NCBI GenBank assembly: GCA_963717465.1
Contig: OY970340.1
Location: 2,464,001-2,528,000, forward strand
DNA length: 64,000 bases
Direction: 5' to 3'
Source of the DNA: Candidatus Bathyarchaeota archaeon
GTDB lineage: Archaea > Thermoproteota > Bathyarchaeia > Bathyarchaeales > Bathycorpusculaceae
Made by a program: the position numbers and the translations under genes
Notes under the pieces: model-generated
What the model was told of the DNA's origin: nothing
Seen by the model: the letters and a program-made list of their open reading frames with translations, nothing else
Databases searched by the model: none
Shown: positions 37,907-61,277 of the stretch, piece by piece
How the letters are laid out: each line of letters starts with the position of its first letter
How positions within the stretch are numbered: position 1 is the first letter of the stretch

Positions 37907-37984
37907 TGGTGGGCCCGGCCGGATTTGAACCGGCGACCAACAGATTATGAGTCTGGCGCTCTGGCCTGACTGAGCTACGGGCCC
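37907..37984 (-). tRNA. tRNA with CAT anticodon, probably tRNA-Ile2; CCA encoded
   Basis: GGGCCCG...CGGGCCC-A-CCA, loop CTCATAA; GGGCCC acceptor is Ile-type in archaea. Confidence 0.88.
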
Positions 37985-60757: not shown

Positions 60758-60850
60758 GCATTTGTTTACACCATGCTTAAAAAATTTAATGCCACTAGCA
60801 AAGAAAAAGGATTTAGCATGACTTTTGATGGGGGGTAGCAGAGGCTCGAA

Positions 60851-61015
60851 TGGTGCCGTTCGTCCAAACAGACGCTAATTCTGCTTGTGGGACGGGATTC
60901 GAGCCCGCGACCTCTGGCTTTAGGCGTTTAGCCCCTTTAGTCTCCAGATTTCTCATCTGGGTTTGTCCTACCAGATTATGAGTCTGGCGCCCTGGCCAGG
61001 CTAGGCTACCCCGGC
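60851..61015 (-). tRNA. tRNA-Met(CAT), elongator type, with three BHB introns (37/38, 45/46, 68/69)
   Basis: Exons 61015-60977, 60949-60942, 60911-60889 and 60858-60851 join into a full cloverleaf, GCCGGGG/CCCCGGC-A-CCA. Confidence 0.88.
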
Positions 61016-61277
61016 AATGTTGGTTTGACCCCGATTTTGCCTTGAGACGTCTTTTTAGTTTGTAGCCTTTGATTTAAACTTTTAAACTGTTTTCAGCAAG
61101 TTGCTTGATTGATCCCTTTTTTAAAAAAGTGTGTCACAACTGTCTTTAGTATAATATGTCAGCAGTTATCTTATGATTAGTCGACCCATTTTGATTCTTT
61201 TGGCAAATCCATAATTTCTTATTTTGTCGCCCATTAATTATTCTTTAACTATCATTCTGCAGCTTAGAACAGCGAAA

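Follow-up and report, generated by a model that had tools for sequence, protein, structure and literature searches.

Multi-intron tRNA genes are a known feature of the Thermoproteales and other TACK archaea, in which one tRNA gene can hold up to three protein-spliced introns of the bulge-helix-bulge (BHB) type. The position lists in the relevant reviews include 45/46 and 59/60, and the only site that they name within the acceptor stem is 3/4 (PMC4090602, PMC4033280, PMC8450103). An intron in the 3' strand of that stem is described neither in the Caldiarchaeum paper nor in Chan 2011. Introns close to tRNA ends do appear to be expected by the authors of tRNAscan-SE 2.0, since their program is described as lengthening candidates by 60 nt to catch them (PMC8450103). 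Another related class comprises the split and permuted tRNA genes of Nanoarchaeum, Caldivirga, Thermofilum and C. merolae, in which, according to the passages devoted to them, complementary leader and trailer sequences build the BHB motif (PMC4090602, PMC3218864). For the Asgard archaea, a 2026 preprint mentions, in its account of intron positions, a few insertions in the acceptor stem and repeated gain and loss at the same positions. On the enzyme side, the cited treatment of endonuclease classes has non-canonical introns cut only by (alpha-beta)2 and epsilon2 enzymes with a specific loop, and relaxed BHB forms accepted only by enzymes of broad specificity (PMC5829648).

The gene considered here lies in a 64,000-nucleotide stretch of DNA (the window) from the genome of a Candidatus Bathyarchaeota archaeon, which is represented by a single 3.05-Mb contig with 40% G+C. 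It occupies positions 60851..61015 on the minus strand, the strand of all features described below, measures 165 nt and includes an encoded CCA. The best overall explanation, to which we assign a probability of roughly 85%, is that this is a working gene for elongator tRNA-Met with three BHB introns, whose transcript would be processed by an (alpha-beta)2 endonuclease and RtcB with the help of a clamp in the 3' trailer. As in the multi-intron tRNAs of the Thermoproteales and TACK archaea, to judge from the reviewed cases, a canonical intron at 37/38 is mixed with non-canonical sites and the host encodes what appears to be a broad-specificity (alpha-beta)2 endonuclease. What differs from those cases is the host lineage, the Bathyarchaeia, an intron in the 3' acceptor strand outside the reviewed positions, and a conserved trailer element.

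Four exons and three introns make up the gene. Exon 1 (60977..61015, 39 nt, tRNA positions 1-37) is followed by intron 1 at the canonical 37/38 site (60950..60976, 27 nt), an 8-nt exon 2 (60942..60949, positions 38-45), intron 2 at 45/46 (60912..60941, 30 nt), exon 3 with the T arm and its C54 (60889..60911, 23 nt, positions 46-68), intron 3 at 68/69, which interrupts the acceptor stem in its 3' strand (60859..60888, 30 nt), and an 8-nt exon 4 with positions 69-72, A73 and CCA (60851..60858). In silico splicing at 60976-60950, 60941-60912 and 60888-60859 gives a perfect 78-nt cloverleaf with the anticodon CAU, and ARAGORN reads the joined exons as a class I tRNA-Met(CAT) whose 7-bp acceptor stem is followed by A73 and CCA. 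The four exons are colinear within 165 nt, as those of split or permuted genes are not. A TATA-like GTTTAAAT box about 57 nt upstream (61072..61079) is a putative promoter that would leave a leader of roughly 25-30 nt, and the same box stands at about the same upstream distance in three related genomes (G082, G016 and G067). A T-run (UUUUUCUUU, 60800..60808), 43-51 nt after the CCA, may be an archaeal terminator, which would place the trailer element inside the primary transcript.

Each intron is bounded by a BHB motif. In intron 1, which has the strict hBHBh' form, the outer 5 bp are the anticodon stem, the central helix is CUCA/UGAG, the inner helix UCUGG/CCAGA has 5 bp, and the bulges are UAA and AAA. 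Intron 2 has a relaxed motif with the central helix CUGG/CCAG, the bulges AGA and AGG, an inner helix of 2 bp and no outer helix. Intron 3 combines the central helix CGUC/GACG and the bulges CCA and AAC with an inner helix of 8 bp and an outer helix of 2 bp (C61C62/G70G71). A parser set to accept only a 4/4-paired central helix with a 3-nt bulge on either side gave precisely 37/38, 45/46 and 68/69 in the genome studied here (G000), as well as in G082 and G016. In all three introns, the cuts by which the tRNA is restored thus coincide with four central pairs out of four and with bulges of 3 nt. The cut at 68/69 is unambiguous; those at 37/38 and 45/46 are fixed only by the register of the motif, because repeats at the intron borders permit alternative cuts with the same product. 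These results agree base for base with the intron coordinates, helices and bulges given in a preliminary description of this DNA, which had read the locus as a tRNA-Met with three introns including one at 68/69; the spliced fold, the parser and the comparison with orthologs all support that reading. The 8-nt second exon and the unusual C54 that it pointed out are both real.

Introns 1 and 2 could in principle be one 57-nt intron cut near 42/43, which would leave two introns in the gene. A spliced alignment that is blind to the motif indeed prefers one 57-nt gap, since the last bases of exon 2 recur at the end of intron 2. The orthologs argue strongly against such a unit: the piece of about 30 nt at 45/46 occurs alone in 89 congeners and together with the other piece in 10, exactly the 27-nt piece is missing in G067 and G095, and this 27-nt piece forms a perfect canonical motif by itself. 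A single 57-nt intron is thus very unlikely.

The gene is poorly visible to standard scanners. ARAGORN misses the unspliced gene with or without its intron mode and still gives no match after removal of intron 1 alone, of introns 1 and 2, or of intron 3 alone; it finds the gene once introns 2 and 3 are taken out, with intron 1 reported as an intron of the anticodon loop. The Rfam tRNA model reaches 30.9 bits against a cut-off of 29, takes introns 1 and 2 as one insertion and ends at model position 66, just before intron 3. The preliminary description expected that standard scanners would probably call this locus a pseudogene; of the two tools applied here, one misses it and the other gives a truncated match. 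Weak Rfam matches on the plus strand (CLRN1-AS1, sR23) were set aside as noise. As to the rest of the tRNA set, five expected tRNAs (Tyr, Asp, Arg-CCG, Gly-CCC and Pro-CGG) escaped detection in this genome, and standard tools leave it without an elongator tRNA-Met as well as several other tRNAs.

Three genes with the anticodon CAU are present in the genome according to ARAGORN, Rfam and sequence comparison. Initiator tRNAs are marked by an A1-U72 pair and by an anticodon stem whose base consists of three G-C pairs. Both marks, the second as GGG/CCC, are found in the gene at C1:1027777-1027853, which looks like the initiator, unlike the three-intron locus with its G1-C72 pair and its anticodon stem CCAGA/UCUGG. 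The gene at C1:2501907-2501984 (37907-37984 of the window) is 79% identical to tRNA-Ile-GAU, with which it shares the acceptor family and the T arm, and 74% identical to the three-intron locus, which itself is 64% identical to tRNA-Ile-GAU. It looks like the better candidate for tRNA-Ile2(CAU) on these similarities, and TiaS, which modifies tRNA-Ile2, is encoded in the genome. With one of the other CAU genes resembling the initiator and the other tRNA-Ile2, the three-intron locus is left as the probable gene for elongator tRNA-Met.

Whether this is the sole elongator Met gene had been named as a check in the preliminary description. No second elongator-type CAU gene was found with ARAGORN -i, with Rfam at E values up to 10, by BLAST with the exons or by a DNA search with the 186-nt locus, and a genome-wide scan for CAU anticodon arms gave 21 hairpins, of which only the three-intron locus and the initiator have a tRNA context. 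The locus is apparently the only elongator tRNA-Met gene in a genome rated 88% complete. A scan for T-arm hairpins detected no further intron in a 3' acceptor strand (58 hairpins, 16 of them outside known genes and none with a split acceptor strand next to it), and BLAST of introns 1 and 2, each with its borders, against the genome gave no convincing second copies.

The history of the gene can be followed in its genus, in 114 of whose 120 genomes an ortholog was found and in 113 of which it could be read completely. The intron at 45/46 stands alone in 89 genomes, together with 37/38 in 10 and together with a T-loop intron (59/60) in 9. The full set of 37/38, 45/46 and 68/69 occurs in three (G000, G082 and G016), 45/46 plus 68/69 in one (G067), and no intron at all in one (G019, whose 3' half is different). 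The gene of G133 is split over two contig ends and was left out of this count. Intron 2 is therefore present in 112 of the 113 parsed genomes, as well as in the fragments from G133, and outside the genus a 45/46 intron occurs in four of five genomes of other families. The intron at 68/69 is far rarer: it occurs in 4 of the 114 congeners and, besides these, in 10 metagenome contigs. In alignments the exons remain colinear and each insert is precisely present or absent; intron 1, for instance, is exactly absent from G067, G095 and most congeners, and intron 3 from G095. This precision excludes a chance origin of the inserts. The exons are nearly invariant: among the 100 orthologs that were parsed strictly, 96 differ from G000 at 0-3 of 75 nt. 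The intron sequences are variable.

Metagenomes were scanned with a pattern consisting of the last 15 nt of intron 3 and the last exon, with zero trailer bases. Genomes and metagenomes together provide 11 distinct carriers of the 68/69 intron, and for 10 of these the sequence extends 30 nt or more into the trailer. A separate search of sequencing runs with the locus found no RNA run that contains it; the matches were three DNA runs described as peat metagenome, with a share of words of 0.04 in each case. Across the 10 distinct carriers, 116 of 120 cells of the intron-3 motif are paired and both bulges are invariant, while the pairs themselves change: the first inner pair is C-G in six carriers and G-C in four, and the third central pair is U-A in two, C-G in three, U-G in one and a C.A mismatch in four, all of one lineage (G067, L244, L247 and L248). 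In a 5-row alignment (A1), 99.1% of cells are paired as against 23-43% when the partners are slid, and the covariation observed in A1, with its 4-5 sequences, is reached by 41 of 500 shuffles.

These observations bear on the possibility that the locus is a decaying pseudogene and that Met is decoded by another gene. The failure of ARAGORN and the Rfam score so close to the cut-off are what a pseudogene might give, and the five unfound tRNAs imply that hidden genes exist in this genome. Yet the spliced product is flawless, the exons are near-invariant over more than 100 orthologs, the intron-3 motif carries compensatory changes, and the combined searches (ARAGORN -i, Rfam to E of 10, exon BLAST, anticodon-arm scan) leave no other elongator-type CAU gene to take over, all of which makes a pseudogene scarcely credible. 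To judge from the sequence comparisons, the gene and its three introns are real and almost certainly functional, and the transcript is very probably spliced as predicted. The weak motif of intron 2 and the C.A mismatch that one lineage has in the central helix of intron 3 count against this reading.

The genome also encodes suitable enzymes. Two genes of the PF01974 endonuclease family, near C1:994.0 kb and C1:2618.8 kb, specify proteins of 184 and 143 aa, respectively. The larger has its nearest matches in the catalytic subunits of crenarchaeal heterotetramers (2cv8, 3p1z_B and 2zyz_B), retains the Tyr/His/Lys triad and has relatives that are 79-85% identical among the 80 loci kept. The smaller has Thr at the position of the catalytic His of the M. 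jannaschii enzyme (1a79), as expected of a structural subunit. The segment GYYGKPLGISKPK of the 184-aa subunit aligns near-identically with 2cv8; we tentatively take it to be the N-terminal Crenarchaea-specific loop, whose conserved lysine would give broad specificity. With this pair of subunits the splicing endonuclease is predicted to be of the two-subunit (alpha-beta)2 type, and an RtcB ligase is encoded as well.

A further feature, absent from the preliminary description and found here, lies directly downstream of the gene. In G000, the trailer segment UUCGAGCCU (60842..60850) follows immediately after the CCA and is separated by a 2-nt linker from a second segment, GCUACCCC (60832..60839). 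Together with A76, segment 1 can form a 10-bp helix with G51-U60, that is, with the 5' strand of the T stem and the T loop. Segment 2 is antisense to G4-C11, the 5' acceptor strand and the start of the D arm. Both segments recur in G082, G016 and G067, in which the remaining trailer and the leader cannot be aligned. The element is found in every one of the 10 distinct carriers whose trailer can be read over 30 nt or more, including six from metagenomes, and this association was not built into the search, because the search pattern held no trailer bases. It is weaker than the raw counts suggest, however, because the intron and the trailer are only 8 nt apart and the carriers are kin.

The manner in which the element varies is informative. 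Its linker differs in length and sequence among carriers, and beyond about 22 nt everything diverges. In the metagenome carrier L242, segment 1 is replaced by CCGUGAC, which is antisense to G46-G52, part of the same T-stem strand, and matches the carrier's own A49. In L247 and L248, C-to-U changes in segment 2 keep pairing as G.U pairs, which is possible in the sense RNA only. The variable linker, the replacement in L242 and the changes in L247 and L248 would fit selection on RNA pairing. The summed duplex energy of the trailer with its two targets is -25.8 to -35.2 kcal/mol in the 10 carriers, against a mean of -12.8 (sd 5.4) in 100 non-carrier orthologs, only two of which, one being G095, reach the weakest carrier. 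With Watson-Crick pairs only, a T-arm complement of at least 6 nt is present in 4/4 genome carriers and in 2/114 non-carrier sequences. When G.U pairs are allowed, a T-arm helix of at least 7 bp appears in 17 of 100 non-carriers, so that carriers separate poorly from ordinary U-rich trailers; helix length with G.U pairs was thus too noisy, and duplex energy was used for the comparison of carriers.

Remnants of the element exist outside the carriers. G095 has an almost intact element without intron 3, G078 has a decayed copy, and in G009 and G100 a decayed copy is displaced by about 33 nt, all three of the latter lacking the 68/69 intron. A downstream repeat that they share identifies these regions as homologous. 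Such remnants invite the explanation that the element is a passenger without a role in splicing, the footprint of whatever event gave the gene its 3' end or shifted that end. It does resemble a copy of the tRNA that has been inverted and has lost its interior (4-11 plus 52-60), its 8-nt distance from intron 3 would make the two travel together, and the module is patchy over the rpoB-region tree described below, as a linked block would be. What such a footprint would leave unexplained is that both segments are kept in 10 distinct carriers in which the linker and the distal trailer cannot be aligned, that L242 has acquired a new antisense stretch against the same strand, that two C-to-U changes preserve pairing at the RNA level alone, and that the copies are decayed in genomes without the intron. 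A passenger is therefore rather unlikely, although the folding models weigh on both sides of the question.

The position of intron 3 poses a particular problem. Its motif consists of bases 61-71 and the intron, and in the cloverleaf bases 61-65 pair with 49-53 and bases 66-72 with 1-7. The two targets of the trailer are exactly the partner strands of these motif bases. In the minimum-energy folds of all four genomes, both the T arm and the 5' acceptor strand are taken up by pairing with the trailer. Constrained folds show the segment 1 helix stacked, across a 4-nt bulge, on the motif's outer helix of 2 bp. The modelled cost of forming the full motif drops with the native trailer in 8/8 genes, from 4.4-7.7 to 1.6-2.5 kcal/mol in the four genomes and from 7.4-9.5 to 1.8-5.9 kcal/mol in four metagenome genes, a uniform fall that does not suit a mere passenger. 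In six of the eight genes the cost with the native trailer is below that with all 25 shuffled trailers, the exceptions being G000 and L248. The probability of the central helix alone does not rise with the trailer, as the passenger explanation would have it; it falls from 0.88 to 0.14 in G000 and from 0.28 to 0.05 in G082, since the energy model favours a pairing that is shifted in register. Both read-outs are reported, since the full-motif cost was chosen after the central-helix probabilities had proved mixed, and the fold energies are only indicative because the energy model ignores the enzyme.

These findings suggest the following mechanism. In the transcript, the first 20 nt or so of the 3' trailer would act in cis as an antisense clamp with two arms. 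One arm would pair with the 5' strand of the T stem and the T loop and stack onto the 2-bp outer helix of the motif, and the other would pair with bases 4-11 of the acceptor region. Bases 61-71 would thereby be freed to fold with intron 3 into the BHB motif. An endonuclease of the (alpha-beta)2 type would cut the introns at 37/38, 45/46 and 68/69 and RtcB would join the exons, giving a standard 78-nt tRNA with encoded CCA, which, after cutting, joining and removal of the trailer, would snap into the cloverleaf. On balance, we lean towards the trailer acting as a splicing clamp. The stronger claim, that it is a dedicated cis antisense chaperone that forces the precursor out of the cloverleaf and so exposes the 68/69 intron to the endonuclease, is put forward tentatively, at slightly less than even odds.

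The same pairing might instead serve another step, such as the 3' maturation of a CCA-containing precursor, protection against exonucleases, or keeping the tRNA inactive until it is processed. Trailer pairing that covers the T arm and the 5' acceptor strand, as folded in the four genomes, would block aminoacylation or access of RNases, and G095 keeps the pairing without intron 3. Still, 98 of 100 non-carrier orthologs of this CCA-encoding gene have no comparable trailer, so 3' maturation of the gene is independent of the element, and its two targets correspond exactly to the partners of the 68/69-motif bases. A role in such another step is accordingly improbable.

How intron 3 and the trailer came to their present distribution was considered with a tree of the rpoB region (28 chosen genomes, namely the four genome carriers, look-alikes and two outgroups; 5294 columns). 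G016 groups with G097 and G078 (support 99), G067 with G073, G122 and G099 (support 100), and G082 lies within a clade of six others (support 100), while G000 is on a long branch. The upstream flanks are syntenic and their similarities follow the tree, except in G000, whose flanks are not syntenic. A recent single gain of intron 3 was rejected, as the carriers fall into at least three well-supported subclades. The simplest reading of this one locus in hand-picked taxa is that intron 3 and the trailer form an old module that has been lost many times, with the trailer decaying later. The alternative, on the same locus and taxa, is lateral replacement of the 3' end of the gene by recombination.

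Set against the described systems, the clamp has partial precedents. The known BHB intron of the acceptor stem shares the constraint that the motif must use bases which the mature stem needs; as reviewed, that intron is in the 5' strand near the leader, whereas the present one interrupts the 3' strand at a distance of 8 nt from the end and appears to be helped by the trailer. In split and permuted tRNAs, too, as far as the cited descriptions go, sequence from outside the tRNA pairs to create a structure recognized by the endonuclease and is later discarded. There, however, the flanks form the motif between two RNA ends, while the gene described here is continuous and its trailer would pair with strands of the mature tRNA, displacing them and extending the outer helix. 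The Asgard tRNA introns are likewise missed by standard annotation, occupy BHB-competent sites and undergo recurrent gain and loss in related lineages, but they belong to another phylum, and the corresponding part of the preprint reports no helper in the trailer or leader. Within the titles and abstracts searched on pre-tRNA leaders, trailers and BHB motifs, no trailer was found that displaces mature-tRNA strands for the benefit of an internal intron.

Taken together, the multi-intron tRNA gene is itself of a known kind, so that its recognition mainly corrects the annotation; what sets it apart is the intron in the 3' acceptor strand together with the conserved antisense trailer. The mechanistic value lies in a splice motif that competes with two mature-tRNA helices and is accompanied by a trailer able to mask both partner strands, a trailer that is kept in every carrier in which it can be read and that decays where the intron is gone. 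The orthologs provide a natural series with 0 to 3 introns at four sites, with or without the trailer, and the locus offers a testable model of splice-motif presentation at sites remote from the anticodon loop, and of what restricts intron positions. If the chaperone reading were general, introns would persist at 'impossible' tRNA positions only where a leader or trailer unmasks the motif. If true, this would provide a rule for the sites at which archaeal tRNA introns can survive and would account for the decay of the element after loss of the intron.

The motifs of introns 1 (37/38) and 2 (45/46) of the elongator tRNA-Met gene, read from the sequence, compete for exon bases within window positions 60944-60987 on the minus strand. 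Both motifs require the exon-2 bases UCUGG (positions 39-43), and they are therefore mutually exclusive in time. A second UCUGG lies inside intron 1 (60975-60971), from where it is able to pair with positions 27-31 instead. Together, the shared requirement and the copy carried by intron 1 suggest that the RNA would fold in a set order, or in alternative ways, while it is spliced.

The T loop of this gene (60896-60902, minus strand) reads CUCGAAU, placing a C at position 54, where U is usual in tRNAs. The same C54 was found in 115 of the 117 tRNA-Met orthologs with a readable T loop (among loci L001-L126); the remaining two, both from outside the genus, carry U54. The intron-less ortholog of the congener G019 (L015, about 1503-1580) matches the other orthologs exactly in its 5' half and deviates in the variable region, the T arm (loop UUCAAAU) and the 3' acceptor strand, with no encoded CCA. 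This gene may be a chimera, or its 3' half may have been replaced. Downstream of tRNA-Met, a conserved direct-repeat motif, TTGATAACACCATTGATAACA, occurs at a distance of 40-90 nt in several genomes and metagenome contigs (loci L002, L037, L031, L102, L105, L240, L243, L245 and L249).

Stand-alone tRNA 3' fragments are found in the host genome (G000, contig C1) at 625421-625480, 626185-626249, 1131133-1131205, ~1773161 and 406075-406138, and include Leu-like sequence, a duplicate of the 3' end of Gly-GCC and a Leu-CAA 3' end. A tRNA-Met copy in the related genome G078 (L126) spans the anticodon loop to CCA. These isolated fragments resemble remnants of the attachment sites of integrated elements.

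A second CAU gene in the window (37907-37984, minus strand), whose anticodon stem is topped by a C27.U43 mismatch, is most likely tRNA-Ile2. Additional intron-hidden tRNA genes were identified by eye on C1: Arg-CCU with a D-loop intron (~1400464-1400608, minus), Leu-UAA (~1403490-1403640, plus), Leu-CAA with several introns (~1774790-1774965, minus), a likely Phe (~916500-916660, plus) and Gly-GCC (2316394-2316504, plus), which ARAGORN mislabels as Ile or Asp. Searches of the host genome located no tRNA genes for Tyr, Asp, Arg-CCG, Gly-CCC or Pro-CGG. Of the 29 genomes searched for rpoB, four have it interrupted by frameshifts or stops, namely G129 (L234), G095 (L236), G115 (L237) and G111 (L238). 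These breaks are probably assembly errors and serve as a warning when using those genomes.

Nine congeners (L018, L055, L060, L066, L089, L095, L098, L099 and L114) carry a T-loop intron at 59/60 in tRNA-Met, a fourth intron site for that gene. These introns are 17-27 nt long, with the T stem serving as the outer helix. The tRNA-Met gene is therefore an intron hot spot, with four positions within one genus.
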